A stretch of DNA of 64,000 bases from Escherichia phage Ge15. How positions within the stretch are numbered: the stretch's first letter is position 1; every line of letters starts with the position of its first letter. The notes beneath the pieces were generated by a model, which made no database searches, was not told where the DNA came from, and saw only the letters and a program-made list of their open reading frames with translations. Of this stretch, positions 10,172 to 52,103 are shown piece after piece. The position numbers were made by a program, and so were the translations under genes. The stretch lies in sequence record PP359696.1; one strand, given 5' to 3'.

Positions 10172-10217
10172 TAATGGTACTATATCCATATCAACCAAGT
10201 GGAATGAATAAAACGTT

Positions 10218-11150: not shown

Positions 11151-11159
11151 AATACCTCC

Positions 11160-11711: not shown

Positions 11712-11716
11712 ATTCA

Positions 11717-11736
11717 GAAGGGGCCGAAGCCCCTCT
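11717..11736. terminator. hairpin gaaggggccgaagcccctc between genes 37 and 38
   Basis: GC stem with GNRA-like loop. Confidence 0.4.
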
Positions 11737-11738
11737 CC

Positions 11739-14700
11739 TTATGCTAAACGAACGATATAGTTAAAAGCAATGTTTTTAACCGTGTTTTCTGTATTACCTG
11801 TACTATTTACAGTGATAGTATGTCCGTGCGAACCAATCGCTACTGAATGCGAGTGGGCACCGATACCTACAGTGTGAGTGTGAGCACCGATACCTACAGT
11901 ATGAGCATGGTTACCCGTAGCGCTAGTAGTACCTGACCAAGTATGAGTATGGTTACCTTCTGTTGATGTTTTGGCCATATTCGACGATGCAGTAGCACCG
12001 CTCACGGTTGCAGTGAATTTAGCGTTGCCGTTTGGACCTACAGTATTGTATCCGTCATAGAATACGCTAGTGGTTATGCCGCCTTGTACCTGAGGACCTG
12101 AACGCGCGTGTTGGTGGTTACCTGCTGCGGCAGTAGTTCCACTCACCGTATGGTTATGGTTACCTGTGGTATTACTGGTTTTAGTACCATAATCAAAGCT
12201 TGAAGATGTTTTAGTACCATAATCAAAGCTTGATGTGGTTTTAGTACCCAAATCAGTATTAGATGCAGAAGCACTATGATTATGAGACTTAATACCATCA
12301 GCTTCTGCACTCAACACTGCACGACCACTCGGTTTACCCTTGATAGTTTGACCACGCATATCAGGCAGAGTGCCGGAAGGATACACAGCAGCTAACTTAG
12401 GATACAAGTCAGCATCAAATGTTTGACCTTCCATTATGGCATAACCTTCAGGAGGTGTATCAGTAGGCCAAGGAATCGGAGCACCAATTGGATAACTTGA
12501 GACAATATCTGTCTTAAGGTTATTTATTGTGGTATTCAAGTTAGCAAAATTACCAGAACCACCAGTAATATTACCATCAGTACCGAATTGAGCATTACCA
12601 ACTTTTAATGGTTTAGTAATATCGACAGAATCAGAGTTTAATGCAATACCATGTGAATATGTGTAGCTGTGCATACGAACGACGTTGCCGCCATCTCCAA
12701 TACCTAAATACCATTTCGGAACATCTGCTTTACGTCCTTGAATGAAGTTAGAAGACTCTTGTGTTGGAGCATTTATTCTAATAGCATCTGATGCCATATT
12801 TACTGTTATGCGTTGACCAGCCGTAGTTCCAGCCGCTTCTACTTTAAATCTACCGCCGCCGATATCTACATCATGATCCATGGAAACTTTACCAGTACTT
12901 AATGTAATATAGAACGGACGTAAATTAGAAATACCACCTGATTCACCAACATTCTGTGGAGTTGGAATAATATAAAGCTTATCTTCAGAACGACGGAAAA
13001 TAGCCCCGTATTCAGCATCGTAAATACGGAAAGCATCAGCAGTCCCGCCAATTTTAACCTGTCCGGTAATTGAGGCACCACCTTGAACAAACAATCCATT
13101 ATTCATTGTAACGTTGCCAACTAGAGTGCTTAATCCGTTAACTCTAAGACTTCCGTCGGTTATTAAGCTTCCTCTAGCATTAACCTGTCCATTGAACTGA
13201 GTTACAACAGGGCCTGTAGTTTCAGAACCGGTCGGAGCTACGCGTTGAGAATAGAAATAATAACCTTGGCCATCAGAAACCTCAAATACGGTTTCTCGAG
13301 CTTTATCACCAGTAGCATTAAATGAGTTACCCCATGCTTTCACGGTCACATAACTTTTGTTCTGGCCTGCACGAGTACCGCCTTCCCAAAGGATTTGTTT
13401 GGTGCCATCAATACCTGAAGCCGCTTTAAAAACTAGAGAAGCATTAGTTCCATCACCATTAAAATATAATCCATTATTAAGTTTTAATGTTTGAACAGAA
13501 GCGATGGTACCATCAGCACGCAAATTTAACGAATTTGAACCAGTTTTAATATCTAAAATGCCAGGCTCAACAAGAAGCCCATCACCCATACTAATGGACA
13601 TACGACCCGTGCCACGGAAATAGTGATACATTTTAGAATTACTGCTATACCCGATATGAGTTTGACCATCACCATTATTATTACCATCAACATCGGTACG
13701 CGCAGTAAACATTGCTTGGTTGTTATTTGGGTAATCCCATGTAGTTCCGGAATCACGGCTATAACCAACCATCAATTTTTTAGTACTGTTAATACCATTG
13801 TTCAAAATGGTAGCCGAAGAAATACCGTTGGCCATTAAATCGATAACGCCGTCGCGAACCCATTTAATACCTGTATCGTTATCACCAATGGCAATACCAA
13901 TAGAAATAGCTGAATCTAATGGATAACGTCCATTCGCACCACTATCCGGAAGACCTACGGAAATAGATTTACCTGCAGTAATACGCCCGGAGGTATCAAA
14001 CGCCCACTGGAAAGATGATGGTCCAATACCAGTCCACCAAGAAATTTCTTGTGGCTTACCTTTTCGGCAATCGGCAATTTCATGGAAAATACTTGATGCA
14101 CTTGATGCACGCAATTTACGCAAATAGTTTAAACCATTAGTAGTATTATCAGAACCATCAGCCGGTGGGTTATAAACCCAAGTAGGTAAAGAAACCCAAT
14201 CATACCCGATGTTGGCGTTAGAGACAAATGTTTTTGTACTGAAATTAATATTTTTAGTAACAATTTCAGGACCGGTGATAATACCATTAGCAGAGTTAAT
14301 ATTGCCTGACGCAGAAATATTACCACTGCGAACTTCAAGACTGCCAGAATCTACAATAAAATTACCATTACGGTTAAAGACCCAGTGTTTAGAATTGTCT
14401 GGAGCTGTAGAATCAATATAATGAACTCTAAATGAGCCTTCGCTTACTAATGTACCTACTGAAAAAGTACCGTCTTTATAACGTTGCTTAATCAGAGGAT
14501 GGTATTCAGACCCTGAGGTAGTTGAACTCAAATCGGTGAAAATTGGAGCTTTATTTGTGTGCTGATTTGCCCAAGCACCATTTCCAGCAGTTTTTGGCAA
14601 GAATTCAATATACTTTCCTGCATAAACAAACTGATTTCCATTAAGATTATACGTGCCGTTTTGTAAATAATCACCATTTTGAGTAATATTTCCACTAATG

Positions 14701-25064: not shown

Positions 25065-25397
25065 ATGTCTGACATTCATGTAACTGGAATTTCACAAGTA
25101 AATATTCGCTGCCAATTTAAAACTGTACCCGGGGTGACTCATATTACTTTATCACACGACCCATATTCTCGTGGAAGACAGTTAACTGGTGTAATTAAGT
25201 TTTTCGGTGGAATTGGTGGTAATGAATTTACTATAGGCGATGAAGAAATTGTTGGCTGTAAATTAAAAGTTCAGAAAGGCGTGTTAGAACTTTTTAGTGA
25301 TGAAGTTTTTGATGAAATCTCACGAGCAGTTAACAAAGGAATGTTAACGTTAATTAAAATGATTAAAGCTAGCGGATATGTTCCTGATCCTTTTTAA
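25065..25397 (+). CDS. hypothetical protein
   Basis: 110-aa ORF with RBS gagg. Confidence 0.5.
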   Translation: MSDIHVTGISQVNIRCQFKTVPGVTHITLSHDPYSRGRQLTGVIKFFGGIGGNEFTIGDEEIVGCKLKVQKGVLELFSDEVFDEISRAVNKGMLTLIKMIKASGYVPDPF

Positions 25398-25408
25398 TAG
25401 GAGATAAT

Positions 25409-26235
<827 letters not shown>

Positions 26236-26243
26236 AATAACGC

Positions 26244-26603
26244 GTGGCGGAAAATATGAATTTTAATTATTACCCTATTTTATTAGAAAAAGACGCGAAA
26301 CAGCCAAAGTGGCAGGGTCCTCAGTTTATTAAAGGTGTCTATCAATTAGTAGTTCCTAAAGACAAGATTTACAGCAGTTGTTTCACTGAATCCGCTTGCA
26401 GTATTTTCGGTAATAGTTCTCCGTATTGGAATTTTGACATAAAGCTGGATAGAAATATCGATATTTGGTTGAAAGCTATGGATATTGGTAATATCACGTT
26501 TGATGAGAATAATTATCATATTATTGGTCGCTTTTCCAAACGTGGCAAAGAATTATATTTCACACCTGAAATTGAGAGAAAATTTGATGCTAAACCGTAT
26601 TGA
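26244..26603 (+). CDS. hypothetical protein inserted between frd and td
   Basis: 119-aa ORF (possible start at MNFNYY, 26256); no recognisable motif. Confidence 0.5.
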   Translation: MAENMNFNYYPILLEKDAKQPKWQGPQFIKGVYQLVVPKDKIYSSCFTESACSIFGNSSPYWNFDIKLDRNIDIWLKAMDIGNITFDENNYHIIGRFSKRGKELYFTPEIERKFDAKPY

Positions 26604-26618
26604 TTATATAGGTGTTAA

Positions 26619-27479
26619 ATGAAACAATACCAAGATTTAATTAAAGACATTTTTGAAAATGGTTATGAAACCGATGATCGTACAGGCACAGGAACAATCG
26701 CTTTGTTCGGTACTAAATTGCGTTGGGATTTAACTAAAGGCTTTCCTGCAGTAACAACTAAAAAGCTCGCCTGGAACGCATGTATTGCTGAGCTTCTATG
26801 GTTTATTTCCGGTTCTACCAATGTTAATGATTTACGTCTTCGTACTCATGGTAGTCTTATTCAAGGTAAAACTATCTGGGATGACAATTATGAAAACCAA
26901 GCTAAAGACCTAGGATATCATAGTGGTGAACTTGGTCCAATTTATGGAAAACAGTGGCGTGATTTCGGTGGTGTGGATCAATTAGTTGAAACTATTGATC
27001 GTATTAAAAAATTACCAACTGATCGACGTCAAATCGTTTCAGCATGGAATCCAGCTGAAATCAATCAAATGGCATTACCGCCCTGTCATATGTTCTATCA
27101 GTTTAATGTGCGTAATGGTTATCTTGATTTACAATGGTACCAAAGAAGTGTAGATGTTTTCTTGGGATTGCCATTCAACATTGCCTCGTACGCTGCCTTG
27201 ACGCATATTGTGGCTAAGATGTGTAATCTTATCCCAGGAGATTTGATATTTTCTGGTGGTAATACTCACATCTATATGAATCATACTGAGCAATGTAAAG
27301 AAATTTTACGTCGTGAGCCTAAAGAACTATGTGAACTTAAAATTGATTGGCCTATAGAGTTTGGAAATTGTGACACCGAAACACAGCTTTACTGGTTAAC
27401 TGAATACATGAAACCGAAAGATTTTATCCTTGAAAATTATGAATCGCATCCAGCAATTAAAGGGAAAATGGCAATATGA
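26619..27479 (+). CDS. td: thymidylate synthase, uninterrupted
   Basis: 286-aa continuous ORF with full ThyA motifs (PPCH, DxxLGxPFN); no intron. Confidence 0.95.
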
Positions 27480-27739
27480 TTTTACGATTTAAAGATACTT
27501 CTGGCGTTGTTCTTTTTACACTTCCTAATCCAAGCGAGTTAGAAGTTCCAGGACCAGAACAGCCTATTATCATTTATGGCAAAAAATATTATACTCATAA
27601 AATGACTCGTGAGTATTTTGATAATAAAATTTCTACAGTTAAAACTTCTTCTGATTGTTATTATGATATTACTGTTTTAACGGAAAAACAATATGACGAA
27701 TTATTACCACGCGTGCCGTCTATGCCGGGTAGTGAATAA
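27476..27739 (+). CDS. hypothetical protein
   Basis: 87-aa ORF coupled to td. Confidence 0.45.
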
Positions 27740-28019
27740 ATATAAATCCGACTTTGATGTTAATATTCACCGTGGTACATTTTGGGGAAATTACGTCGGT
27801 AAAGATGCTGGCAGCCGGGAGGCTGCCATTGAATTATTCAAAAAAGATTTTATACGTCGAATTAAATCCGGAGAAATAACTAAAGCACATTTAGAGCCTT
27901 TACGTGGAATGAGGCTAGGATGCACATGTAAACCAAAGCCGTGTCATGGTGATATAATAGCTCATATAGTTAACCGATTGTTTAAAGACGATTTTCAAGT
28001 TGAGGACTTATGCAATTAA
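27693..28019 (+). CDS. hypothetical Cys-rich protein
   Basis: 108-aa ORF; start uncertain, overlaps the previous ORF. Confidence 0.4.
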
Positions 28020-30274
28020 TTAATGTTATCAAAAGTAGTGGTGTTTCTCAGAGCTTTGACCCGCAAAAAATTATTAAAGTTTTATCCTGGGCAGCTGAAG
28101 GAACATCTGTAGATCCTTATGAATTATATGAAAATATTAAATCATATCTCCGTGATGGAATGACCACTGATGACATTCAAACCATTGTAATTAAGGCTGC
28201 TGCGAATTCTATTTCAGTTGAAGAGCCTGATTATCAATACGTAGCCGCTCGCTGTTTAATGTTTGCTCTTCGTAAGCATGTTTACGGACAATATGAACCA
28301 CGTTCATTTATTGACCATATTTCTTACTGTGTAAATGAAGGTAAATACGACCCTGAATTATTGTCAAAATATTCAGCAGAAGAAATTACATTTTTAGAAT
28401 CAAAAATTAAGCACGAGCGGGATATGGAATTTACTTATTCCGGGGCGATGCAATTAAAAGAAAAATATCTCGTTAAAGATAAAACCACTGGTCAAATTTA
28501 TGAAACTCCGCAGTTTGCATTTATGACTATTGGAATGGCATTGCATCAAGATGAACCTGTTGATAGATTAAAACACGTTATTCGTTTTTATGAAGCAGTA
28601 TCTACTCGACAGATTTCATTGCCAACTCCTATTATGGCTGGCTGTCGTACTCCGACTCGACAGTTTAGTTCATGCGTTGTTATTGAGGCAGGTGATTCAT
28701 TAAAGTCTATCAATAAGGCTTCCGCTTCAATTGTTGAATATATCTCCAAACGCGCTGGAATTGGTATTAACGTTGGTATGATTCGTGCCGAAGGTTCTAA
28801 GATTGGCACAGGTGAAGTGCGTCATACTGGTGTTATTCCTTTTTGGAAACATTTTCAGACTGCTGTTAAATCATGCTCACAGGGTGGAATTCGTGGCGGC
28901 GCTGCTACTGCTTATTATCCTATTTGGCATTTGGAAGTTGAAAATCTTCTCGTTTTGAAAAATAACAAAGGTGTAGAAGAAAACCGTATCCGTCATATGG
29001 ATTATGGCGTTCAACTGAATGACCTAATGATGGAACGATTCGGAAAGAATGATTACATTACTTTGTTCAGTCCGCATGAAATGGGTGGTGAGCTTTATTA
29101 TTCTTATTTTAAAGACCAAGACCGTTTCCGTGAATTATATGAAGCCGCAGAAAAAGACCCTAATATTCGTAAAAAGCGTATTAAAGCCCGTGAACTGTTT
29201 GAATTACTCATGACTGAACGCTCAGGAACAGCAAGGATTTATGTACAGTTCATTGATAATACGAATAACTATACTCCATTTATTCGTGAAAAGGCACCTA
29301 TTCGTCAGAGTAACTTGTGCTGTGAAATTGCTATTCCAACAAATGATGTGAATAGTCCTGATGCTGAAATTGGATTGTGTACTCTCTCTGCATTTGTGTT
29401 AGATAACTTCGATTGGCAAGACCAAGATAAAATTAATGAATTAGCAGAAGTCCAAGTTCGTGCTCTTGATAATCTTTTAGATTACCAAGGATATCCAGTT
29501 CCTGAAGCAGAAAAAGCTAAAAAGCGTCGAAATCTTGGTGTAGGTGTTACTAACTATGCAGCTTGGCTGGCAAGTAATTTTGCTTCTTATGAAGATGCTA
29601 ACGATTTAACACATGAACTATTTGAGAGATTACAGTATGGACTCATCAAAGCATCCATTAAGCTCGCCAAAGAAAAAGGACCTTGCGAATATTATTCAGA
29701 CACTCGTTGGTCTCGAGGCGAATTACCTATCGACTGGTACAATAAAAAGATTGACCAAATCGCAGCTCCAAAATACGTTTGTGACTGGTCGGCGCTGCGG
29801 GAAGACCTTAAGCTCTTTGGCATCCGTAATAGCACATTATCAGCACTTATGCCATGTGAGTCATCTTCCCAAGTTTCTAACAGTACAAACGGTATCGAGC
29901 CTCCACGTGGACCAGTCTCTGTTAAAGAATCAAAAGAGGGTTCCTTTAATCAAGTCGTGCCCAATATTGAGCATAACATAGACCTCTATGATTATACGTG
30001 GAAATTAGCTAAAAAAGGTAATAAACCTTATCTTACGCAAGTAGCTATTATGCTTAAATGGGTGTGTCAATCAGCTTCAGCAAATACATATTATGACCCG
30101 CAGATTTTTCCAAAAGGAAAGGTTCCAATGTCAATAATGATTGATGACCTTTTGTATTTTTGGTATTTTGGCGGAAAAAATTTCTATTATCATAATACCC
30201 GTGACGGTTCTGGTACTGATGATTATGAAATAGAAACTCCAAAAGCTGAAGATTGTGCAGCGTGTAAATTGTAA
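28010..30274 (+). CDS. nrdA: ribonucleotide reductase large subunit (class Ia)
   Basis: 754-aa ORF, same length as T4 NrdA; ATP-cone and catalytic motifs. Confidence 0.95.
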   Translation: MQLINVIKSSGVSQSFDPQKIIKVLSWAAEGTSVDPYELYENIKSYLRDGMTTDDIQTIVIKAAANSISVEEPDYQYVAARCLMFALRKHVYGQYEPRSFIDHISYCVNEGKYDPELLSKYSAEEITFLESKIKHERDMEFTYSGAMQLKEKYLVKDKTTGQIYETPQFAFMTIGMALHQDEPVDRLKHVIRFYEAVSTRQISLPTPIMAGCRTPTRQFSSCVVIEAGDSLKSINKASASIVEYISKRAGIGINVGMIRAEGSKIGTGEVRHTGVIPFWKHFQTAVKSCSQGGIRGGAATAYYPIWHLEVENLLVLKNNKGVEENRIRHMDYGVQLNDLMMERFGKNDYITLFSPHEMGGELYYSYFKDQDRFRELYEAAEKDPNIRKKRIKARELFELLMTERSGTARIYVQFIDNTNNYTPFIREKAPIRQSNLCCEIAIPTNDVNSPDAEIGLCTLSAFVLDNFDWQDQDKINELAEVQVRALDNLLDYQGYPVPEAEKAKKRRNLGVGVTNYAAWLASNFASYEDANDLTHELFERLQYGLIKASIKLAKEKGPCEYYSDTRWSRGELPIDWYNKKIDQIAAPKYVCDWSALREDLKLFGIRNSTLSALMPCESSSQVSNSTNGIEPPRGPVSVKESKEGSFNQVVPNIEHNIDLYDYTWKLAKKGNKPYLTQVAIMLKWVCQSASANTYYDPQIFPKGKVPMSIMIDDLLYFWYFGGKNFYYHNTRDGSGTDDYEIETPKAEDCAACKL

Positions 30275-30915
30275 TGAATTATCAAAAAATCTATAACGAC
30301 CTAATTTCCCGAGCTCAGGCTCGGGAATCTTTATCAGAATATAAAGAGACACATCATATAATCCCTAGATGCATGGGAGGTTCTGATGATAAAGAAAATT
30401 TAGTTGAATTAACAGGTAGAGAGCATTTTATAGCTCATTGGCTTTTATGCAAAATATATGACACCCCAGGATTAAAGAAAGCTTTTGGTTTAATGTGCTT
30501 GACTGGTAAAAATCGCTCATATAAAATTTCTTCTCAACTATACGAATTAGGTAGACGACGTTTATCTGAAGCTGCTATAGGACGTGAAGTTTCTATAGAA
30601 ACCAGGGAAAAGATAAGTAGAGCTCTTAAAGGAAGGAAATTTACCAAAGAGCATTTAGCTCGCATGAGAAAACCTAAAACCGAAGAAGCTAAAAAGAATA
30701 TAGCTGCTGCTAAAGTCGGCGTGCTTAATCCGATGTATGGTACAATCTCTCCGACAAGAGATGTTCCTCATACTAAAGAAACTCGCGATTTGATTTCTTT
30801 GAGAACTAAGCAAAGTATAGAGTATCCGCCTTGTCCGCATTGTGGCAAGAAAGTTAATAAAGGCAATGCTCTAAGATGGCATTATGATAAATGTAAATTT
30901 AAGGATTCTAAATGA
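30274..30915 (+). CDS. mobE: HNH endonuclease (mobE-like, free-standing)
   Basis: HHIIPRCMGGSDDKENLVELTGREHFIAHW HNH motif; located between nrdA and nrdB as T4 mobE. Confidence 0.7.
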   Translation: MNYQKIYNDLISRAQARESLSEYKETHHIIPRCMGGSDDKENLVELTGREHFIAHWLLCKIYDTPGLKKAFGLMCLTGKNRSYKISSQLYELGRRRLSEAAIGREVSIETREKISRALKGRKFTKEHLARMRKPKTEEAKKNIAAAKVGVLNPMYGTISPTRDVPHTKETRDLISLRTKQSIEYPPCPHCGKKVNKGNALRWHYDKCKFKDSK

Positions 30916-41886: not shown

Positions 41887-42083
41887 TGAAATTCTTTTTG
41901 GGTCAAACTGTTGAATTAAAGGGAGTTGGTATACCTGGATTAATTTCTAAGGTTCTACCTCCATTTAAATGGAGTGGTATTCAAATAAAAGAGGCTTATA
42001 TTGTTTCCTGGGTAGATGGAAATGAAGACCTTCGTATGGGTGATGAATTATCTCCTATCTATGGATTAAAGGAATTAATATGA
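41886..42083 (+). CDS. hypothetical protein
   Basis: 65-aa ORF. Confidence 0.45.
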   Translation: MKFFLGQTVELKGVGIPGLISKVLPPFKWSGIQIKEAYIVSWVDGNEDLRMGDELSPIYGLKELI

Positions 42084-42286
42084 ATATAATTAATAAGATT
42101 TTTGGAATTCAGTACATTAAGGTTACATATAAAGTAACGTATAAAGGTCCGTATACCGATGAACATGAAGAGCCACAAGTTCAGTCTATTATATTAGAAA
42201 AGGACCCTAACTGGCCAGTTGAATTTCGTCTTCCTTGCTATGGTCATTGGGCTGATGTTGAAATTATAAGTATTGAAAATGTCTGA
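42080..42286 (+). CDS. hypothetical protein
   Basis: 68-aa ORF. Confidence 0.45.
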   Translation: MNIINKIFGIQYIKVTYKVTYKGPYTDEHEEPQVQSIILEKDPNWPVEFRLPCYGHWADVEIISIENV

Positions 42287-42737
42287 GTTAGAGATAAGAA
42301 GCAATTTTAGATGGCCATCATGTGCATTAAGTAATTTCGCCCAATGGCCTTTTGTTATGGATGGTATCCAATTTGGAGGTCTCGAAGGATTCCTCCAAGG
42401 ATGCAAGGTGAAAAATGTTGAACAACAGCGTCGTATATTTGGGTTATCCGGGCTTGCCGCCCAACAAGCTGGAAGGTCTTATGCTAGAGCTCAGGACCGT
42501 GGGACCCTCTTCTGGCTTGGAGTTCCGTTTTCAAGATACTCCCCAGCGTGGAAAGAATTATACACAAATGCATATTTTGAAGCAGCGTTCCAAAACAAGG
42601 GCTTTCGCGATGCATTACAAGCCTCGAAAGGAAAAGTTTTGAAGCACAGCATGGCTAGTGGTCTAACAAAAGATGATACAATACTAACCGAAGCTGAATT
42701 TATTGATGTGTTAAACCTATTAAGAGACTCTCTATGA
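42273..42737 (+). CDS. YbiA/NADAR (DUF1768)-like protein, 30.3-like
   Basis: motif SNFAQWPFVMDGIQFGGLEGFLQGCKV parallels YbiA FSNFAAWP..DG...SEHYFQAQK; locally higher GC. Confidence 0.6.
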   Translation: MKMSELEIRSNFRWPSCALSNFAQWPFVMDGIQFGGLEGFLQGCKVKNVEQQRRIFGLSGLAAQQAGRSYARAQDRGTLFWLGVPFSRYSPAWKELYTNAYFEAAFQNKGFRDALQASKGKVLKHSMASGLTKDDTILTEAEFIDVLNLLRDSL

Positions 42738-43597
42738 AGCCTACTATTTTGACTGATATTGATGGAGTATGTTTAAGCTGGCAATCAGGCCTTCCTTATT
42801 TTGCTCAGAAATATAATCTTCCGTTAGAACATATTTTAAAAATGATCCAAGATGAGAAATTTATTTCTCCGGGTAAACTCTTTAATTGTGATGAAGAACT
42901 TGGTGTCAAGTTAATTGAAAAATATAATCGATCAGATTTTATTCGTTATTTGTCTCCATATAAAGATGCACTGTGTGTAATTAACAAATTAAAAGAAGAT
43001 TATAATTTTGTAGCTGTTACAGCATTGGGTGATTCTATTGACGCTCTGTTGAATCGTCAATTTAATTTGAATGCTCTTTTTCCTGGTGCCTTCTCAGAAG
43101 TAATGATGTGTGGTCATGATTCTTCAAAAGAAGAGTTATTCAAAAAGGCAAAAGAGAAATATAACGTAATTTGTTATATTGACGATCTCGCTCACCATTG
43201 CGATCATGCGAGTGAAATATTAAATGTTCCTGTTTATTGGATGGCGCGAGGAGAGCGTGACAATATTCCAAAAACCGCTCAGCGAGTTTATACATGGAAT
43301 GATGTAGAAAATAAGCTTTTTTCGCCGAAGGAAAATAAAGAAAGTTTTGATAATGAAAAAGCTATAAAAGATGTAATTGAGAAGATGGTTAAAAACGATT
43401 CTTTTCGTTGGAACACTACCTGGAGAACTCCTGGATTTAATCCGTATAATCCATATTATACACATCCATATAATCCATATTATACACACCCGTATCATAT
43501 GAATCCATTCCATACGTGGAGTTATACTAAGCCTGGTGATGCAGGGTATTTTAATAGATTTACTAGTGGTGATAATATTTTCCAAGGAGCATTCTAA
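42734..43597 (+). CDS. HAD-like hydrolase with C-terminal Tyr/Pro/His-rich repeats, 30.2-like
   Basis: N-terminal ILTDIDGV (DxDG HAD motif I); C-terminal NPYNPYYTHPYNPYYTHPYHMNPFH repeats. Confidence 0.6.
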   Translation: MKPTILTDIDGVCLSWQSGLPYFAQKYNLPLEHILKMIQDEKFISPGKLFNCDEELGVKLIEKYNRSDFIRYLSPYKDALCVINKLKEDYNFVAVTALGDSIDALLNRQFNLNALFPGAFSEVMMCGHDSSKEELFKKAKEKYNVICYIDDLAHHCDHASEILNVPVYWMARGERDNIPKTAQRVYTWNDVENKLFSPKENKESFDNEKAIKDVIEKMVKNDSFRWNTTWRTPGFNPYNPYYTHPYNPYYTHPYHMNPFHTWSYTKPGDAGYFNRFTSGDNIFQGAF

Positions 43598-43644
43598 TGT
43601 TTGTCGTTCACACTATTTATGAAAATGAAGGTAATACTACACGT
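43232..43644 (+). repeat. 413-bp direct repeat, copy 1 (3' end of 30.2-like gene plus first 48 bp of 30.1-like gene)
   Basis: identical to 45617-46029 by direct comparison. Confidence 0.9.
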
Positions 43645-44017
43645 CCGTATAATCCATATTATACACATCCATATAATCCATAATTTAATCCGTATAATCC
43701 ATATTATACACATCCTATAAAAAATTAAAATTAACCACAATAAGCGAATTGATTAAAAATATTTATTGTTCATTATCCGTCAGTAATCATCCCGGGCAAA
43801 TGCCCGGGAATTATTCTAGGATTATTTTCTTTGTTAAAAAAGACAAACGGTATTAACTGATGTATTTACTATTTACCGCTCCCTGCAGGGGGGATTATCA
43901 GAATCCGCGGTTATTCATTATTTATATACATTCAATAAAAAAGTAACCTCATAAAAAATCCTGTACTCACAGGGTGATGCGGGATAACTGACGTAAGGAG
44001 TGCTGCAGGGATTTGAT
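43645..44017. other. left arm of inserted block: scrambled phage micro-repeats then unique AT-rich DNA with GC palindromes
   Basis: 43645-43680 repeats 43442-43477, 43684-43715 repeats 43436-43467; then cccgggcaaatgcccggg, ctgcagggggg, ccgcgg. Confidence 0.6.
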
Positions 44018-44108
44018 TAGACTGGCCCCCTGAATCTCCAGACAACCAATATCACTTAAATAAGTGATAGTCTTAATACTAGTTTTTAGACTAGTCATTG
44101 GAGAACAG

Positions 44109-44474
44109 ATGATTGATGTCTTAGGGCCGGAGAAACGCAGACGGCGTACCACACAGGAAAAGATCGCAATTGTTCAGCAGAGCTTTGAACCGGGGATGAC
44201 GGTCTCCCTCGTTGCCCGGCAACATGGTGTAGCAGCCAGCCAGTTATTTCTCTGGCGTAAGCAATACCAGGAAGGAAGTCTTACTGCTGTCGCCGCCGGA
44301 GAACAGGTTGTTCCTGCCTCTGAACTTGCTGCCGCCATGAAGCAGATTAAAGAACTCCAGCGCCTGCTCGGCAAGAAAACGATGGAAAATGAACTCCTCA
44401 AAGAAGCCGTTGAATATGGACGGGCAAAAAAGTGGATAGCGCACGCGCCCTTATTGCCCGGGGATGGGGAGTAA
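44109..44474 (+). CDS. insC: IS2 InsC (orfA, HTH regulator/transposase N-terminus)
   Basis: 121-aa [29 protein letters not shown]... with A6G slippery site at 44426-44432. Confidence 0.85.
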
Positions 44475-45143
44475 GCTTAGTCAGCCGTTGTCTCCGGGTG
44501 TGCCAAACGTGTTTACCGGATCATGCGCCAGAATGCGCTGTTGCTTGAGCGAAAACCTGCTGTACCGCCATCGAAACGGGCACATACAGGCAGAGTGGCC
44601 GTGAAAGAAAGCAATCAGCGATGGTGCTCTGACGGGTTCGAGTTCTGCTGTGATAACGGAGAGAGACTGCGTGTCACGTTCGCGCTGGACTGCTGTGATC
44701 GTGAGGCACTGCACTGGGCGGTCACTACCGGCGGCTTCAACAGTGAAACAGTACAGGACGTCATGCTGGGAGCGGTGGAACGCCGCTTCGGCAACGATCT
44801 TCCGTCGTCTCCAGTGGAGTGGCTGACGGATAATGGTTCATGCTACCGGGCTAATGAAACACGCCAGTTCGCCCGGATGTTGGGACTTGAACCGAAGAAC
44901 ACGGCGGTGCGGAGTCCGGAGAGTAACGGAATAGCAGAGAGCTTCGTGAAAACGATAAAGCGTGACTACATCAGTATCATGCCCAAACCAGACGGGTTAA
45001 CGGCAGCAAAGAACCTTGCAGAGGCGTTCGAGCATTATAACGAATGGCATCCGCATAGTGCGCTGGGTTATCGCTCGCCACGGGAATATCTGCGGCAGCG
45101 GGCTTGTAATGGGTTAAGTGATAACAGATGTCTGGAAATATAG
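44432..45143 (+). pseudogene. insD: IS2 insD (orfB transposase catalytic part), frame disrupted by internal deletion
   Basis: orfB reads [23 protein letters not shown] then shifts at about 44501; the downstream DDE region (44523-45143) is in another frame. Confidence 0.8.
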
Positions 45144-45367
45144 GGGCAAATCCAATAAACAATTGGAATTTACTTCCATTGATCTGTTTACTCAGTGGTT
45201 GTCACTTTTATCGAGAAAGGTTTGCAGAACGCGGGTTTTTTTATAAGGTTCCTGATGTACTGAGGGATTATTTATCAGCTATACCGCTGGAAATAAATGA
45301 AAAGGCACGATACAAACCCGGCATCGCTAACTATCACAATATCATCACATGTGGTTTTTCAACGTTG

Positions 45368-45616
45368 TTACCCTATATAAGGCACGGCACCATGACAAAT
45401 ACGGGTATTCGCGCCGATAACAACTTCACCTGCAGTTTCATCAATAATTACCTGGTCTGCAATCTGAATATTTTTCTCTTTAACATTAAGCTTCAGATAG
45501 TTTTTCAGTTCCTGTGACAGAAGGTTGGGAATAAGCGGTTGACGCTTCCACCAGTGCGGAATAGCGGGTGGGTTTGTCGCGCTGAGGTTCGCGTCCAGTA
45601 AAAAAGGCAATAAGTC
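45368..45616 (-). pseudogene. 3' fragment of a non-phage gene (C-terminal about 80 codons ending ...GANTRICHGAVPYIG)
   Basis: coding-like - strand frame ending at a stop at 45368-45370, truncated at the junction with phage repeat copy 2; higher GC than the phage. Confidence 0.5.
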
Positions 45617-46029
45617 GTTTATTGGATGGCGCGAGGAGAGCGTGACAATATTCCAAAAACCGCTCAGCGAGTTTATACATGGAATGATGTAGAAAATAAG
45701 CTTTTTTCGCCGAAGGAAAATAAAGAAAGTTTTGATAATGAAAAAGCTATAAAAGATGTAATTGAGAAGATGGTTAAAAACGATTCTTTTCGTTGGAACA
45801 CTACCTGGAGAACTCCTGGATTTAATCCGTATAATCCATATTATACACATCCATATAATCCATATTATACACACCCGTATCATATGAATCCATTCCATAC
45901 GTGGAGTTATACTAAGCCTGGTGATGCAGGGTATTTTAATAGATTTACTAGTGGTGATAATATTTTCCAAGGAGCATTCTAATGTTTGTCGTTCACACTA
46001 TTTATGAAAATGAAGGTAATACTACACGT
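45617..46029 (+). repeat. 413-bp direct repeat, copy 2
   Basis: identical to 43232-43644. Confidence 0.9.
45626..45982 (+). pseudogene. truncated duplicate of the 30.2-like gene 3' end (118 codons from internal Met)
   Basis: translation identical to the C-terminal 118 aa of the 42734-43597 product; upstream context is foreign. Confidence 0.6.
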
Positions 46030-46251
46030 GATTACGGTCACGTAAATCAATTTTTTAGATGCAATCCAGAATTCCGAGCTCAAAAAGACGAACGAATTTT
46101 TAAAAAATGTGTAGAGCAAGGTTTCATTTACGTCAAGCACTGGATGCAAGGAAATAAAGTTAGAACTACATATCATAAGTCTTTGCCTGAGCTTAATGAT
46201 GAATTGATTTATAATAGAGCTGTAAACCAAACTTTGAAGGATGAGCAATGA
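45982..46251 (+). CDS. hypothetical protein (30.1 position)
   Basis: 89-aa ORF; start overlaps the stop of the 30.2-like ORF (TAATG). Confidence 0.55.
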   Translation: MFVVHTIYENEGNTTRDYGHVNQFFRCNPEFRAQKDERIFKKCVEQGFIYVKHWMQGNKVRTTYHKSLPELNDELIYNRAVNQTLKDEQ

Positions 46252-47711
46252 TTCTTAAAATTCTGAATGAAATAGCATCTATTGGATCAACTAAACAGAA
46301 GCAAGCAATTCTTGAAAAGAATAAAGATAATGAATTGCTTAAACGGGTATATCGTCTGACTTATTCTCGTGGGTTACAGTATTATATCAAGAAATGGCCT
46401 AAACCTGGTATTGCTACCCAGAGTTTTGGAATGCTGACTATTACCGATATGCTTGACTTCATTGAATTCACGTTAGCTACTCGGAAATTGACCGGAAATG
46501 CTGCAATTGAGGAATTGACTGGATATATCACCGATGGTAAAAAGGATGATGTTGAAGTTTTGCGTCGAGTGATGATGCGAGACCTTGAATGCGGTGCTTC
46601 AGTATCTATTGCAAACAAAGTTTGGCCAGGTTTAATTCCTGAACAACCTCAAATGCTGGCAAGTTCTTATGATGAAAAGGGCATTAGTAAGAATATCAAA
46701 TTTCCAGCCTTTGCACAGTTAAAAGCAGATGGAGCCCGGTGTTTTGCTGAAGTTAGAGGCGATGAATTAGATGATGTTCGTCTTTTATCACGAGCTGGTA
46801 ATGAATATCTAGGATTAGATCTTCTTAAGGAAGAATTAATCAAAATGACTGCTGAAGCCCGCCAGATTCATCCAGAAGGTGTGTTAATTGATGGCGAATT
46901 GGTATACCATGAGCAAGTTAAAAAGGAACCAGAAGGCCTAGATTTTCTTTTTGATGCTTATCCTGAAATTAGTAAAGCTAAAGAATTCGCCGAAGTAGCG
47001 GAATCTCGTACTGCTTCTAATGGAATCGCCAATAAATCCTTAAAAGGAACCATTTCCGAAAAAGAAGCCAAATGCATGAAGTTTCAGGTCTGGGATTATG
47101 TCCCGTTGGTAGAAATATACGGTCTTCCGGCGTTTCGTTTAAAATATGATGTACGTTTTTCTAAACTAGAACAAATGACATCAGGATATGATAAAGTAAT
47201 TTTAATTGAAAACCAGGTAGTAAATAACCTAGATGAAGCTAAGGTAATTTATAAAAAATATATTGACCAAGGTCTTGAAGGTATTATTCTCAAAAATACC
47301 GATGGATTGTGGGAAAATGCTCGTTCAAAAAATCTCTATAAATTTAAAGAAGTAATTGATGTTGATTTAAAAATTGTAGGAATTTATCCTCACCGTAAAG
47401 ACCCTACTAAAGCAGGTGGATTTATTCTTGAATCAGAGTGTGGAAAAATTAAAGTAAATGCTGGTTCAGGCTTAAAAGATAAAGCCGGTGTAAAATCACA
47501 TGAACTTGACCGTACTCGCATTATGGAAAACCAAAATTATTATATTGGAAAAATTCTAGAGTGCGAATGCAACGGTTGGCTAAAATCTGATGGCCGCACT
47601 GATTACGTAAAATTATTTCTTCCAATTGCGATTCGTTTACGTGAAGATAAAACTAAAGCTAATACATTCGAGGATGTATTTGGTGATTTTCATGAGGTAA
47701 CTGGTCTATGA
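46248..47711 (+). CDS. 30: ATP-dependent DNA ligase
   Basis: 487-aa ORF near-identical to T4 DNA ligase from MILKILNEIASIGSTKQKQAIL...; adenylation lysine motif region present. Confidence 0.95.
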   Translation: MILKILNEIASIGSTKQKQAILEKNKDNELLKRVYRLTYSRGLQYYIKKWPKPGIATQSFGMLTITDMLDFIEFTLATRKLTGNAAIEELTGYITDGKKDDVEVLRRVMMRDLECGASVSIANKVWPGLIPEQPQMLASSYDEKGISKNIKFPAFAQLKADGARCFAEVRGDELDDVRLLSRAGNEYLGLDLLKEELIKMTAEARQIHPEGVLIDGELVYHEQVKKEPEGLDFLFDAYPEISKAKEFAEVAESRTASNGIANKSLKGTISEKEAKCMKFQVWDYVPLVEIYGLPAFRLKYDVRFSKLEQMTSGYDKVILIENQVVNNLDEAKVIYKKYIDQGLEGIILKNTDGLWENARSKNLYKFKEVIDVDLKIVGIYPHRKDPTKAGGFILESECGKIKVNAGSGLKDKAGVKSHELDRTRIMENQNYYIGKILECECNGWLKSDGRTDYVKLFLPIAIRLREDKTKANTFEDVFGDFHEVTGL

Positions 47712-47945: not shown

Positions 47946-50042
47946 ATGATGGAACTCATTACAGAATTATTTGACGAAGATACTACTCTTCCGATTACAA
48001 ACTTAAATCCAAAGAAGAAAATACCACAAATTTTTTCAGTTCATGTTGATGACGCAATTGAACAACCAGGCTTTCGTTTATGTACCTATACATCTGGAGG
48101 TGATACTAATCGCGATTTAAAGATGGGCGATAAAATGATGCATATTGTTCCTTTTACATTAACTGCTAAAGGTTCAATTGCTAAATTAAAAGGTCTCGGT
48201 CCAAGCCCAATTAATTACATCAATTCAGTTTTTACTGTTGCGATGCAGACGATGCGTCAGTATAAAATTGATGCCTGTATGCTTCGTATTCTTAAGTCTA
48301 AAACTGCTGGTCAAGCTCGTCAAATTCAACTTATTGCTGATAGACTTATCCGCAGTCGTTCAGGTGGCAGATACGTCCTTCTTAAGGAACTCTGGGATTA
48401 CGATAAAAAGTATGCATATATTCTTATACATCGCAAAAATGTATCACTAGAAGACATTCCAGGAGTTCCAGAAATTAGCACCGAGCTCTTTACTAAAGTT
48501 GAATCAAAGGTTGGTGATGTTTATATCAATAAAGATACTGGAGCTCAAGTAACTAAAAATGAGGCAATTGCTGCATCTATTGCGCAAGAAAACGATAAAC
48601 GTTCTGACCAAGCTGTAATCGTTAAAGTTAAAATTTCCCGTAGAGCAATTGCACAAAGTCAATCATTAGAATCTTCTAGATTTGAAAGTGAATTATTCCA
48701 AAAGTATGAATCTACCGCAGCTAATTTCAATAAACCTGCTACGGCTCCTTTAATTCCCGAAGCAGAAGAAATGAAGCTTGGAATTAATTCATTAGCTTCT
48801 AAAACTAAAGCAGCAAAAATTATTGCTGAAGGAACTGCAGATGAACTTCATTATGACTATAAATTCTTTTCAAAAAGTGAGGTTAATGAAGTTTCTGAAA
48901 AAATTAAAGATGTAATTCTTAATGCGATTAAAAATGAACCAACTACTTCAATAAAATGTTTAGAGAAATACGCAGCAGCTGTTAATCAATTATTTGAAGA
49001 ATATAAAGATAATTGGCTTGATAAACATAATAAAACCCGTAAAGGACAGCCAGATGAAGTCTGGGAAGAAATGACTAAAAATTCCTGGAACGCAGCAAAA
49101 ACTAAATTCCTCAAAAGAATGATTTACAGCTTTTCTGGAATTGGTGCAGGTCCAATGATTGATATTACTATTGCCCGTGATGGTTCTAAATATACTCCAT
49201 CACAAAAGCGTGGCATTAGAGAGTATTGCGGTTCAGGATATACTGACATCAATAATCTTCTTTTAGGACGCTACAATCCAGAACGATATGATGTAATGAG
49301 TGAAAAAGAAATTGAATCTGCTATAAATAACTTAGATTCAGCTTTTGAAAATGGTGACCGTATACCAGAAGGCATTACAGTTTATCGTGCTCAAAGCATG
49401 ACTGCTCCTATATACGAAGCACTAGTTAAAAATAAAGTGTTCTATTTCAGAAATTTTGTATCTACTTCTTTAACTCCTATCATTTTTGGACGTTTTGGAA
49501 TTACGCATACTGGTATTGGTCTTTTAGAACCAGAAGCTCGTAATGAATTGACAGTTGATAAAAATGAAGAAGGAATAACTATTAATCCAAGCGAAATAAG
49601 AGCGTATAAAGAAAATCCTGAATACGTTAAAGTTCAAATAGGATGGGCAATTGATGGAGCTCATAAAGTTAATGTTGTATATCCAGGAAGTCTCGGAATA
49701 GCAACAGAAGCTGAAGTTATTCTACCACGAGGATTGATGGTCAAAGTTAATAAAATAACTGATGCTTCTAATAATGACGGAACAACATCTAATAATACAA
49801 AACTCATTCAAGCTGAAGTTATGACTACGGAAGAACTCACCGAATCAGTCATTTATGACGGTGACCGTCTAATGGAAACTGGTGAAGTAGTTGCAATGAC
49901 AGGTGATATTGAAATAGAAGACAGAGTTGACTTTGCATCATTTGTTTCATCAAATGTTAAACAAAAAGTAGAATCATCTCTTGGAATTATTGCGTCTTGC
50001 ATAGATATTACAAACATGCCTTACAAGTTCGTTCAAGGATAA
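47946..50042 (+). CDS. alt: Alt-family ADP-ribosyltransferase (capsid-packaged, injected)
   Basis: 698-aa ORF; N-terminal MELITELFDE; position between ligase and baseplate genes as T4 alt. Confidence 0.75.
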   Translation: MMELITELFDEDTTLPITNLNPKKKIPQIFSVHVDDAIEQPGFRLCTYTSGGDTNRDLKMGDKMMHIVPFTLTAKGSIAKLKGLGPSPINYINSVFTVAMQTMRQYKIDACMLRILKSKTAGQARQIQLIADRLIRSRSGGRYVLLKELWDYDKKYAYILIHRKNVSLEDIPGVPEISTELFTKVESKVGDVYINKDTGAQVTKNEAIAASIAQENDKRSDQAVIVKVKISRRAIAQSQSLESSRFESELFQKYESTAANFNKPATAPLIPEAEEMKLGINSLASKTKAAKIIAEGTADELHYDYKFFSKSEVNEVSEKIKDVILNAIKNEPTTSIKCLEKYAAAVNQLFEEYKDNWLDKHNKTRKGQPDEVWEEMTKNSWNAAKTKFLKRMIYSFSGIGAGPMIDITIARDGSKYTPSQKRGIREYCGSGYTDINNLLLGRYNPERYDVMSEKEIESAINNLDSAFENGDRIPEGITVYRAQSMTAPIYEALVKNKVFYFRNFVSTSLTPIIFGRFGITHTGIGLLEPEARNELTVDKNEEGITINPSEIRAYKENPEYVKVQIGWAIDGAHKVNVVYPGSLGIATEAEVILPRGLMVKVNKITDASNNDGTTSNNTKLIQAEVMTTEELTESVIYDGDRLMETGEVVAMTGDIEIEDRVDFASFVSSNVKQKVESSLGIIASCIDITNMPYKFVQG

Positions 50043-50045
50043 ATC

Positions 50046-52103
50046 ATGGAACTTATTACAGAATTATTTGACGGCGCTTCGGCGCCGGTTGTTAACTTAA
50101 ATCCTAAGCATAAAATACCTCAAATTTTTGCTATTCAAACCGGTGAAGAAAGCGTGCTTCCTGGATTTAGATTTTGTACATACACCTCTGGCGGTGATAC
50201 AAATAAAAACGTTAAGCCAGGCGATAAAATGATGCATATCGTAATGATAGGTGTTAATGAGAAACTATCATTAGTTAAACTTAAAAACTTGGGTGGAAAT
50301 CCAATTGGTGTCATTAATGCGGTTTTTGATACTGCTCTTCAAACAATGAAACAGTATAAAATTGACGCATGCCTATTCCGCGTACTAAAAAGTAAAACAA
50401 ATGGTGCAGCTCGTCAAATGCAAGTTATTGCTGACCGTTTAGTACGTACTAAAGGAGCAGGTCGATATGTTCTTTTAAAGGAAATCTGGGATTACGATAA
50501 AAAGTATGCATATATTATGGTTTACCGTAAAAATGCCAATTTAGAAGACATTCCAGGTGTACCTCCTATTTCAACTGAGTTATTCACAAAAGTTGAATCA
50601 AAGGTTGGTGATGTTTATGTAGATGTTAAAACAGGTAATGCTGTTCCTAAAGCTGTTGCTGTTGCTGCTTCTATTGCTTTAGAAAATGATAAGCGCACGG
50701 ATCAAGCTGTTATTCAGAAAACTAAAATTAGTCGTCGATTGGCAGCACAAGCTCAATATTCTACTGTCGATGCTTCGCTTCAGGGTGATAGCTTCGCTGC
50801 CAAGAAATATCAAGAGTTTGAATCTAAAGTTCCGGTATATAAAGCAGAAGGACCAATGAACTCTGGTGTTATTCAGATTGGTTCAAACTTCAGCAAAGGA
50901 GCTATCGGTGGTATGAGAAGTGCTTCTCGTTTTAAATCTAACGATTATGAACTAGAAAGCTTCCGAAATCATATTGCATTGGCTCATGCACGTTTACGTG
51001 ATCCGTCTATCAGACTGCAGAGCGATATAACACATCAAGGTTCTCAAGAATATTTAAAGAATAAAGAATTTTTTGATTATAAAACCGATAAAATTTTGAG
51101 CGATCTCGCTGACATTAATATTTCTAATAGCTTTGATGTTATTAAGAAAATTATCAATGATTTAGTTAAAGGTTCTAAAGCCACGCCAGACGAAAAGGTA
51201 GCTATTATTCAATTTGTTATGAATGGCATTTATAAATTGATTAATGAATCTGCTGCTCAGGCATATGAATACGCAAGCACCGAAGTAACTCCAAAAGGAT
51301 TAACTCAGGCTGAGTCTGATGTAATAGAAGATTATTGTGCAGATTCATATGTTGAAATGAACTCGTTCCTCTTGGGTAAACCAGATTCTACCCGTGAAGA
51401 ATACATGGAACGAGCTATTAAACACATCGAGACAATGGATTCTGCATTCGCTAAAGGTTCAGTTCTTCCTCCAGGAACTACGCTTTATCGTGGACAAGAA
51501 GTTACTTTTAAAACTTTACGTCATAATATTGAAAATAAAATGTTCTATTTCAAGAACTTCGTATCCACATCGCTTAAACCAAATATCTTCGGTGAGCATG
51601 GTAAAAACTATATGGCTCTAGATGATTCCGGCGCAGTATTTTCTGGCGAAGGAGAAGGTTCAGTTGATGCTGAAGATTTAATGCATATGGGTAGTCACTC
51701 TGCTTATGCGAATGAAGACGCTGAAACTAGCGTAGGTATGGTAATTAAAGGGGCTGAGCGAATCAAAGTTATCGTTCCAGGTCATTTATCAGGATTTCCA
51801 TCAGAAGCTGAAGTTATTTTACCGCGTGGAATTTTGCTGAAGATTAATAAAGTGAGCACGTACATGATGAAAGAAACTGCTTATAATAAGTATCTAATCG
51901 AAGGCACAATCGTTCCTCCTTCTGAACAATTAGAAGAATCGGTATATGATGGCGATCATCTAATGGAAACTGGTGAAGTTCGTCCAATGGCTGGGTTTAA
52001 TCAATTCCTTGTAGAAGAATCAAAAGAAGAGGAAAACGAAGTTTCTCAAATCTTGGCTTCTTTGGTTAACATCAACGGAATGTCTAAAAAGTTCAAGATG
52101 TAG
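50046..52103 (+). CDS. Alt-like paralogue
   Basis: 685-aa ORF; same N-terminus MELITELFD and collinear similarity to the upstream alt product. Confidence 0.7.
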   Translation: MELITELFDGASAPVVNLNPKHKIPQIFAIQTGEESVLPGFRFCTYTSGGDTNKNVKPGDKMMHIVMIGVNEKLSLVKLKNLGGNPIGVINAVFDTALQTMKQYKIDACLFRVLKSKTNGAARQMQVIADRLVRTKGAGRYVLLKEIWDYDKKYAYIMVYRKNANLEDIPGVPPISTELFTKVESKVGDVYVDVKTGNAVPKAVAVAASIALENDKRTDQAVIQKTKISRRLAAQAQYSTVDASLQGDSFAAKKYQEFESKVPVYKAEGPMNSGVIQIGSNFSKGAIGGMRSASRFKSNDYELESFRNHIALAHARLRDPSIRLQSDITHQGSQEYLKNKEFFDYKTDKILSDLADINISNSFDVIKKIINDLVKGSKATPDEKVAIIQFVMNGIYKLINESAAQAYEYASTEVTPKGLTQAESDVIEDYCADSYVEMNSFLLGKPDSTREEYMERAIKHIETMDSAFAKGSVLPPGTTLYRGQEVTFKTLRHNIENKMFYFKNFVSTSLKPNIFGEHGKNYMALDDSGAVFSGEGEGSVDAEDLMHMGSHSAYANEDAETSVGMVIKGAERIKVIVPGHLSGFPSEAEVILPRGILLKINKVSTYMMKETAYNKYLIEGTIVPPSEQLEESVYDGDHLMETGEVRPMAGFNQFLVEESKEEENEVSQILASLVNINGMSKKFKM

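Follow-up and report, generated by a model that had tools for sequence, protein, structure and literature searches.

An IS2-centred patchwork of Escherichia coli K-12 DNA between two 413-bp repeats in the Escherichia phage Ge15 record is probably an assembly or finishing product

How did host DNA carrying an insertion sequence come to lie at the 30.2/30.1 site of a T4-like phage record, between two identical copies of phage sequence? The earlier note on this DNA had stated that T-even phages normally carry no IS elements, and for IS2 this proved correct: only nine of 50,697 phage records matched the element and none of the nine was T4-like. A literature search for IS2 in T4-like phages returned nothing relevant. 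The Vequintavirus phage BP9 (PP488543.1) resembles the Ge15 record in that the record of a virulent coliphage contains IS2-derived sequence, annotated as InsA and located beside rIIB. However, the IS2 fragment of BP9 comprises only 381 bp at 95.8% identity, and BP9 belongs to a different phage family.

Comparison of the two phage copies (43232-43644 and 45617-46029) revealed 100% identity over 413 bp that stops sharply, with not a single further base shared on either side. This pair is the sole long exact repeat within the window, by which we mean the whole 64-kb stretch of DNA that was analysed. The coordinates that the earlier note had given for the copies, their make-up of 366 bp of 30.2 plus 48 bp of 30.1, and the consequences for the reading frames were all borne out: the 30.2-like gene is intact in copy 1, the 30.1-like gene is intact only after copy 2, and the C-terminal remnant of 30.2 forms a 118-aa ORF (Table 1). 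At the left junction the truncated start of 30.1 continues in frame into the first piece of the insert, and the product of this fusion is MFVVHTIYENEGNTTRPYNPYYTHPYNP, followed by a stop. Outside the insert, the window looks like a clean, collinear T4-like genome whose long genes are intact and whose sequence contains no Ns. Base 1 of the window lies 10 bp upstream of the start codon of rIIA, with rIIB next, which shows that the record was rotated, being cut and joined anew either manually or with a tool.

Table 1. Coordinates of the features at the 30.2/30.1 site and of the pieces that form the insert
Feature	Position	Strand	Source or remark
30.2-like gene, intact, 287 aa	42734..43597	+	3' end within repeat copy 1; ORF list
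Direct repeat copy 1	43232..43644		last 366 bp of 30.2 and first 48 bp of 30.1
Truncated 30.1 start, 16 codons, in-frame fusion to the 38-bp piece	43597..43683	+	read from the sequence
38-bp piece	43645..43682	+	exact copy of 43442-43479, tandem-repeat part of 30.2; local BLAST
33-bp piece	43683..43715	+	exact copy of 43435-43467, same 30.2 repeat region; local BLAST
65-bp piece, K-12 yqiG fragment 1	43716..43780	+	100% to NC_000913.3, locus L004, 3029-3093
237-bp piece, downstream of K-12 intB (leuX island)	43781..44017	+	100% to L002, 2501-2737
IS2 bases 1-484	44018..44501	+	left inverted repeat and intact insC (44109-44474); 100% to K-12 IS2 copies
IS2 bases 679-1331	44502..45154	+	3' two thirds of insD and right inverted repeat; 1-bp ambiguity at joint
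230-bp piece, K-12 ygeO/orgA pseudogene	45155..45384	+	alignment 44501-45384 to L003, 99.9%
232-bp piece, K-12 yaiX/yaiP	45385..45616	+	100% to L001, 4379-4610
Direct repeat copy 2	45617..46029		holds truncated 30.2 C-terminal ORF, 45626-45982
30.1-like gene, DUF3045, 89 aa	45982..46251	+	intact copy only here
DNA ligase	46248-47711		after the 30.1-like gene

The 1,972 bp between the repeats consist of eight abutted pieces, most of it E. coli K-12 DNA from the neighbourhood of four different IS2 copies. The sum is fully accounted for (38+33+65+237+1137+230+232 = 1,972 bp), every base belonging either to the phage's own 30.2 repeat region or to K-12 DNA at 99.9-100% identity, and the insert holds no replicon or marker. 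The earlier note had described an AT-rich arm, an IS2 element and a GC-richer arm with a truncated foreign gene. The limits of IS2, at 44018 and 45154, were confirmed; the notion of one foreign block per arm was not, since the left arm (43645-44017) is composed of four pieces of 38, 33, 65 and 237 bp and the right arm (45155-45616) of two unlinked K-12 pieces of 230 and 232 bp. The 38- and 33-bp pieces are copies of same-strand sequence located about 165-210 bp upstream of the joint, and their sources overlap by 26 bp. The yqiG piece covers offsets -68 to -4 and stops 3 bp short of the left end of the yqiG IS2, and the intB piece covers offsets -246 to -10 and stops 9 bp short of the left end of the IS2 at its own locus; the 9 bp that precede this IS2 in K-12, GGTCCCTTG, are missing from the insert. 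A terminator-like hairpin is found in the intB piece at 43790-43809. On the other side, the ygeO/orgA piece (offsets +1 to +230) joins the right end of IS2 exactly as in K-12, with one mismatch, G for A at 45262, which is absent from all the best-matching E. coli genomes. The yaiX/yaiP piece comes from beside a fourth IS2 copy, the one in yaiX, and occupies offsets +48 to +279 relative to the right end of that element.

We then considered whether the insert might reflect transposition of IS2 out of the K-12 chromosome during phage growth. As in transposition of this IS3-family element, the match to IS2 is 100%, and both terminal inverted repeats and insC are present. However, the IS2 in the insert measures 1,137 bp, compared with 1,331 bp for the complete element, and the absence of bases 485-677 (193 bp) destroys the transposase frame and breaks insD; neither a full-length IS2 with an intact orfAB nor a 5-bp target-site duplication with IS ends abutting phage DNA was found. 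Instead, the ends of IS2 meet K-12 sequence on both sides, TTGAT before the element and AATAA after it, from two different loci, and transposition does not yield a 413-bp duplication. Simple IS2 transposition is excluded by this anatomy and retains practically none of our confidence. A 206-aa truncated InsD is on record, and is uninformative here because it comes only from IS2 copies interrupted by other elements.

The flanking duplication itself directs attention to a single crossover with a circular molecule. The exact direct repeat that brackets the insert (413 bp, 100%, sharp ends) is what such an event would leave, and it matches integrants of the T4 insertion/substitution system, in which foreign DNA is bracketed by an exact duplication of the target; the system is that of Selick, Kreuzer and Alberts 1988, J Biol Chem 263:11336, as listed under reference 49 of PMC12407873. 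An engineered vector of this kind would have been a plasmid with the 413-bp target, integrated by one crossover. Unlike such integrants, the insert is a scramble of host pieces: phage or K-12 chromosomal DNA accounts for all of its 1,972 bp, no plasmid origin, supF or marker is present, and plasmid records match the insert only in IS2. A vector integrant is excluded by this content, and we consider it vanishingly improbable. Neither backbone, origin nor marker of any circular donor could be recognised. The earlier note had proposed either a single crossover with a circle or a chimeric assembly, and had favoured the latter less. The flanking duplication fits both proposals; a simple donor molecule does not fit, because the insert is made of eight pieces, from the phage itself and from the flanks of four IS2 loci, with homology-free joints and without replicon or marker.

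Each host piece lies within 279 bp of the end of a different K-12 IS2 copy. Left flanks are placed to the left of IS2 and right flanks to the right, all in the orientation of IS2, and the pieces are collinear with IS2 except for small gaps of 3, 9, 193 and 47 bp. Their spread from IS2 is about one sequencing-insert length, and three of them are nearly equal and read-like in length (237, 230 and 232 bp). According to our own rough estimates, a random host fragment would fall so near an IS2 end with a chance of about 0.3% each, and the matching order and orientation would arise by chance in about 1 in 480 cases. These are features of chimeric contigs or scaffolds that contaminating host reads form through a collapsed multi-copy repeat: a multi-copy IS stands at the centre with flanks of different copies around it (here those of four K-12 IS2 loci), the pieces are ordered and oriented like mates within about one insert length with small collinear gaps, and overlapping contig ends are left duplicated after circularisation and rotation. 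The Ge15 insert differs from such chimeras in having no Ns and no overlaps at its joints, and in its 33- and 38-bp scraps, for which a simple k-mer graph gives no explanation. Because the host pieces lie no more than 279 bp from IS2, on the right side and strand and with only small gaps, chimeric assembly is better supported than a crossover.

We next analyzed the joints by aligning each of them to both parent sequences and comparing local similarity with shuffled controls. Where the parent sequences were unambiguous, the novel joints shared 0-1 bp of homology, and similarity near the joints did not exceed that of the shuffles, apart from two trivial cases in which the parents share sequence. 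Inspection by eye revealed no restriction or cleavage motif shared by the breakpoints. Microhomology of about 2 bp or more was not a property of most joints. Several short templated segments did occur at one breakpoint, in an insert of eight pieces of which two come from less than 210 bp upstream. Joints with 0-1 bp in common fit pieces that were abutted rather than recombination guided by homology. They would also match blunt ligation in a test tube, and we considered a physical chimera formed during library preparation, amplification or gap-closing PCR that entered the consensus through one or a few long reads or a Sanger amplicon. PCR jumping among IS2 copies could swap flanks, and a unique product would be in agreement with the absence of the structure from the collections searched. 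Nevertheless, random ligation would neither pick pieces close to IS2 nor preserve their order and orientation, and PCR jumping needs homology, of which the flank-to-flank joints have none; we give this explanation only a slim chance.

The patchwork was unique to the Ge15 record in all the collections that we searched. No phage record covered 80% of the locus or of the insert, the insert is absent from other T4-like phages, and no contiguous match was found in complete genomes or plasmids of E. coli. The comparison with E. coli genomes that the earlier note had called for thus returned the K-12 pieces and no contiguous counterpart. Exact searches covered four joint strings in all, with two strings for each of the collections IMG/VR, JGI metagenomes and GTDB genomes, and none of the four tested joints had a match there. 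In particular, the joint of the internal IS2 deletion is absent from JGI metagenome and GTDB contigs, and the joint between the intB piece and IS2 that lacks the 9 bp occurs in no E. coli genome. An exact-protein look-up of the chimeric ORFs (118, 200 and 129 aa) showed that they are not on record, and the Alt protein had no entry either. All 19 of the 19 related loci display the plain order 30.2-30.1-ligase, and the exact 30.2 protein is found in other T4-like contigs with 30.1 and ligase directly after it. Identity of 100% to 41945-43644 was also seen in the public Logan contig SRR25221740_1198, which then runs straight into a normal 30.1; no paper mentions the accession SRR25221740.

Taken together, these results lead us to consider it probable that the insert is a product of assembly or finishing, in which contaminating host reads around a collapsed IS2 were stitched between overlapping phage ends; the phage chromosome itself most likely lacks the insert. 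We infer the following steps. An E. coli K-12 strain would have served to grow the phage, and part of its DNA would have been sequenced together with that of the phage. With about seven matching places in the K-12 chromosome (seven in MG1655), IS2 would be the best-covered host sequence and would collapse into one contig, and reads or read pairs anchored in it would pull in short flanks of several copies. A scaffolding, gap-closing or manual step may then have arrayed these flanks serially, each on its correct side of IS2, and closed the short unsequenced stretches by plain abutment, and the joint inside IS2 may mark old contig ends that were butted together. Finally, the block would have been trapped between overlapping ends of the phage assembly, one stopping at 43644 and the other beginning at 43232, probably at the stage where a circularly permuted genome, assembled as a linear contig, was being closed and turned to begin at rIIA, and the 413-bp overlap of the ends would have been kept as a direct repeat. 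An error in a single read would explain the mismatch at 45262.

Several observations weigh against an artefact, among them the lack of Ns and the clean, collinear look of the rest of the window with its intact long genes. De Bruijn and overlap assemblers require common sequence at joints, and we know of no standard assembler that abuts pieces without overlap. When unitigs were generated by simulation from the phage sequence without the insert (k = 15-63), none matched the 38- and 33-bp pieces and no branches appeared at k of at least 21, and a De Bruijn origin of these pieces was rejected. Real repair by templated insertion is known to leave short copies of sequence that lies about 200 bp upstream of the break. 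In addition, the link of the host block to this particular phage site has no account in the artefact reading.

The insertion might instead be real and have arisen by homology-independent (illegitimate) recombination in infected K-12 cells. Two routes can be envisaged. Pieces of broken-down host DNA could have been joined with a 413-bp phage fragment into a 2,385-bp circle that entered the phage genome by one homologous crossover. Alternatively, a break at 30.2/30.1 could have been repaired by recombination-dependent replication with many template switches, homology within IS2 letting the growing end hop among IS2 copies and copy into their flanks. Both routes leave the 413-bp duplication with 30.2 and 30.1 intact, and since both genes are intact the phage could be viable. 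An exact direct duplication around foreign DNA is the outcome expected of a single crossover, the host DNA is all from K-12, a plausible propagation host, and T4 replication relies heavily on recombination, as stated in PMC3016281. The upstream copies of 38 and 33 bp resemble the locally templated insertions of break repair, and the nested order, with the right inner flank contiguous with IS2 and the outer flanks cut on their IS2 side, corresponds to repeated one-sided homologous capture anchored in IS2. The insert thus shares with illegitimate recombination and template-switch repair a homologous IS2 anchor beside non-homologous joints, short copies from near the break and nested flanks. Such repair normally shows microhomology at its joints, whereas 0-1 bp is found here. 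To our knowledge, such processes have not been described to make patchworks of host DNA in T4-type phages.

A genuine insertion would require eight homology-free joints within 2 kb, including the 9-bp loss at the tip of IS2 and the 193-bp loss within it, in a lineage whose relatives show none. Random ligation leaves unexplained the proximity of the host pieces to IS2 (279 bp), their side and their strand, and template switching is at odds with the absence of its usual microhomology. As judged from T4 insertion/substitution integrants, a 413-bp direct repeat in a T4-type phage should quickly recombine the insert out unless the insert is selected, and no plausible selected gene is present, insC being the only candidate. 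The uninterrupted junction of the 100%-identical contig SRR25221740_1198 points in the same direction. We therefore regard a real insertion by illegitimate recombination as unlikely, although it carries some weight. The same tentative standing applies to the claim it would entail, that about 1.8 kb of K-12 chromosomal DNA is genuinely present between 413-bp repeats in a virulent T4-type phage, as a nested patchwork built by IS2-anchored recombination or by multi-step template switching in the course of recombination-dependent replication.

If the insert is an artefact, as we favour, the finding is a curation flag: 2.4 kb of the record should come out, together with a false IS2 gene, a false truncated 30.2 and false host genes, all of which would mislead anyone surveying virulent phages for host genes or IS elements. 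If it were real, a T-even phage that destroys host DNA would be able to capture host sequence by IS-anchored, homology-independent joining, the locus would be the first example of an IS serving as portable homology for repeated pickup of host flanks by a host-degrading phage, and its 413-bp repeats would offer a natural substrate on which to measure the rate of loss.

The phage is of the T4 type (Tequatrovirus), and among public records Escherichia phage sutha matches the locus best (99.1%). The two stretches that the earlier note had reported as identical proved to be a 413-bp direct repeat whose identity ends sharply on both sides and which holds, as had been described, 366 bp from the end of the 30.2-like gene and 48 bp from the start of the 30.1-like gene. 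No other long exact repeats were found in the 64-kb window. The 30.2 C-terminus (window 43435-43510) is a short tandem-repeat region encoding NPYNPYYTHPYNPYYTHPY, the length of which differs across relatives, with 30.2 products of 278, 279, 286 and 287 aa. The 38-bp and 33-bp phage scraps of the insert both derive from exactly this region.

Features of the locus and sources of the insert (window coordinates)
Feature	Position	Length	Source or state
rIIA	11-2188		
rIIB	2200-3138		
30.2-like gene	42734-43597		intact, ahead of insert
Direct repeat, copy 1	43232-43644	413 bp	
Phage scrap	43645-43682	38 bp	exact copy of 43442-43479 (30.2 repeat region)
Phage scrap	43683-43715	33 bp	exact copy of 43435-43467 (30.2 repeat region)
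yqiG piece	43716-43780	65 bp	K-12 yqiG fragment 1
intB piece	43781-44017	237 bp	K-12 DNA downstream of intB
IS2, first part	44018-44501	484 bp	IS2 bases 1-484
IS2, second part	44502-45154	653 bp	IS2 bases 679-1331
orgA piece	45155-45384	230 bp	K-12 ygeO/orgA pseudogene
yaiX piece	45385-45616	232 bp	K-12 yaiX/yaiP
Direct repeat, copy 2	45617-46029	413 bp	
C-terminal 30.2 ORF	45626-45982	118 aa	
30.1-like gene	45982-46251		intact, after insert
DNA ligase gene	46248-47711		intact, after insert

The 1,972 bp between the repeats had been read as IS2 with two foreign arms. This description did not hold, and the structure is stranger than it implied. When the insert was aligned locally to four K-12 loci and to the window itself, every base was accounted for, and it resolved into eight pieces of phage or K-12 origin. 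Identity to K-12 is 100% across the host parts save for one base in the orgA-derived piece (45262, G for A); this G was absent from all best-matching E. coli genomes, and an error in a read, a SNP private to the host or a mutation might account for it. The IS2 lacks bases 485-677, with insC intact and the transposase frame destroyed. At the eight novel joints the parents share 0-1 bp wherever their sequences are unambiguous, and similarity near the breakpoints was not above that of shuffled controls, bar two trivial cases of parents sharing sequence. Where the intB flank meets IS2 base 1, 9 bp (GGTCCCTTG) are missing that occur in every one of the 348 E. coli genomes carrying that IS2 copy. 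Simple transposition of IS2 was ruled out, given that its ends adjoin K-12 flanks and not phage DNA, that a 5-bp target duplication is absent and that the element is defective.

The host pieces each derive from DNA immediately beside a different K-12 IS2 copy. Counted from its own copy (- to the left, + to the right), the yqiG piece runs from -68 to -4, the intB piece from -246 to -10, the orgA piece, joined to IS2 exactly as in K-12, from +1 to +230, and the yaiX piece from +48 to +279. Left-flank pieces stand to the left of IS2 and right-flank pieces to its right, all are oriented as IS2, and none reaches farther than 279 bp from an IS2 end; they are therefore collinear with IS2 save for gaps of 3, 9, 193 and 47 bp, of which the 193-bp gap falls inside IS2. 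Three pieces are of nearly equal length (237, 230 and 232 bp). Since by our own estimate a random host fragment would lie this close to an IS2 copy with a chance of ∼0.3% each, the association of the pieces with IS2 must be mechanistic.

These regularities point to a technical origin, and the insert is probably an artefact of assembly or finishing. K-12 host reads would contaminate the sequencing data, and IS2 would collapse to one contig because the K-12 chromosome holds ∼7 places matching it. Reads or mates anchored in IS2 would carry in the flanks of several copies, scaffolding or gap-closing would place these serially on their proper sides, and small unsequenced gaps would be shut by abutment; the joint inside IS2 may represent former contig ends. 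The block would have lodged between two ends of the phage assembly that overlapped by 413 bp, and this overlap would remain as a duplication upon closing and rotating the circularly permuted genome. On this view the geometry centred on IS2, the read-like lengths of the pieces, the collinear gaps, the private base difference, the unique joints and the duplication are all explained, and no rare biological event is needed. Against it, no responsible tool can be named, the sequence contains no Ns, abutting pieces is foreign to overlap-based assemblers, and the 33- and 38-bp scraps did not emerge from a simulated k-mer graph.

The window begins 10 bp ahead of the start codon of rIIA and is collinear with sutha, save for the usual mosaic gaps; the record was therefore deliberately rotated and re-oriented, which means that somewhere along it the original ends of the assembly have been connected. 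The largest departures from sutha, the closest relative, are at 9728-12904 and 25068-30911. They fall in the distal tail-fibre genes, which are 74-82% identical and contain gaps, and in td/nrd, a region in which sutha carries genes for homing endonucleases, and amount to ordinary T-even mosaicism. Window 47946-52100 holds two tandem Alt-like ADP-ribosyltransferase paralogues, ∼71% identical over repeated stretches; for the first of them, the exact 698-aa protein was absent from the public protein collection.

A genuine illegitimate insertion-duplication, the one other serious reading though in our view unlikely, could have arisen from a ligated circle entering by the 413-bp homology, or from break repair with many template switches in which IS2 homology steered hops among the copies. 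It accounts for the 413-bp duplication and the locally copied scraps, and the flanks are nested much as repeated one-sided homologous capture might leave them. It would require, however, eight homology-free joints at one locus, among them two small deletions exactly at and inside IS2, for an insert with no selectable payload. Judging by T4 integrants, the 413-bp repeats should rapidly recombine the insert out. A chimera formed in the test tube, during library preparation or PCR, is a minor third possibility with very little probability. Engineered integration of the T4 insertion/substitution type (Selick et al. 1988, as cited in PMC12407873) was ruled out, as vector sequence is absent.

None of 50,697 phage records reached 80% coverage of either the locus or the insert; nine matched IS2, none of them T4-like. 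The comparison with E. coli genomes that the earlier note had proposed, extended to plasmids, gave no contiguous match to the structure, nor to the internal IS2 deletion, in 5,426 complete E. coli genomes or 72,556 plasmids. Exact strings over four joints were absent from the collections searched for each (IMG/VR, JGI metagenome contigs, GTDB genomes), and no record of the chimeric ORFs was found. The plain order 30.3-30.2-30.1-ligase was present in 19 of 19 related loci, recovered via exact matches to 30.2, 30.1 and ligase. One of them, the Logan contig SRR25221740_1198 (1,707 bp), matches window 41945-43644 at 100% identity before running directly into normal 30.1, whereas other relatives are only ∼97% identical; in essence, this sequence therefore also exists in an insert-free form. 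This contig ends just 7 bp beyond the right boundary of the 413-bp repeat. Escherichia phage BP9 (PP488543.1, a virulent Vequintavirus of 138 kb) carries a 381-bp IS2 5' fragment (95.8% identity), annotated InsA and overlapping the rIIB end (2501-2894 of the locus examined); this may be a further case, genuine or not, of IS2 in the record of a lytic phage.

The 1,972-bp structure is best handled as a probable misassembly. A strong terminator-like hairpin (TCCCGGGCAAATGCCCGGGA, then a T-rich tail) came with the intB-flank piece, at 43790-43809 on the + strand. If the insert is real, this hairpin would lie between 30.2 and 30.1/ligase and could be polar on 30.1/ligase, and an insert proved real would represent a remarkable capture of host DNA by a T-even phage.
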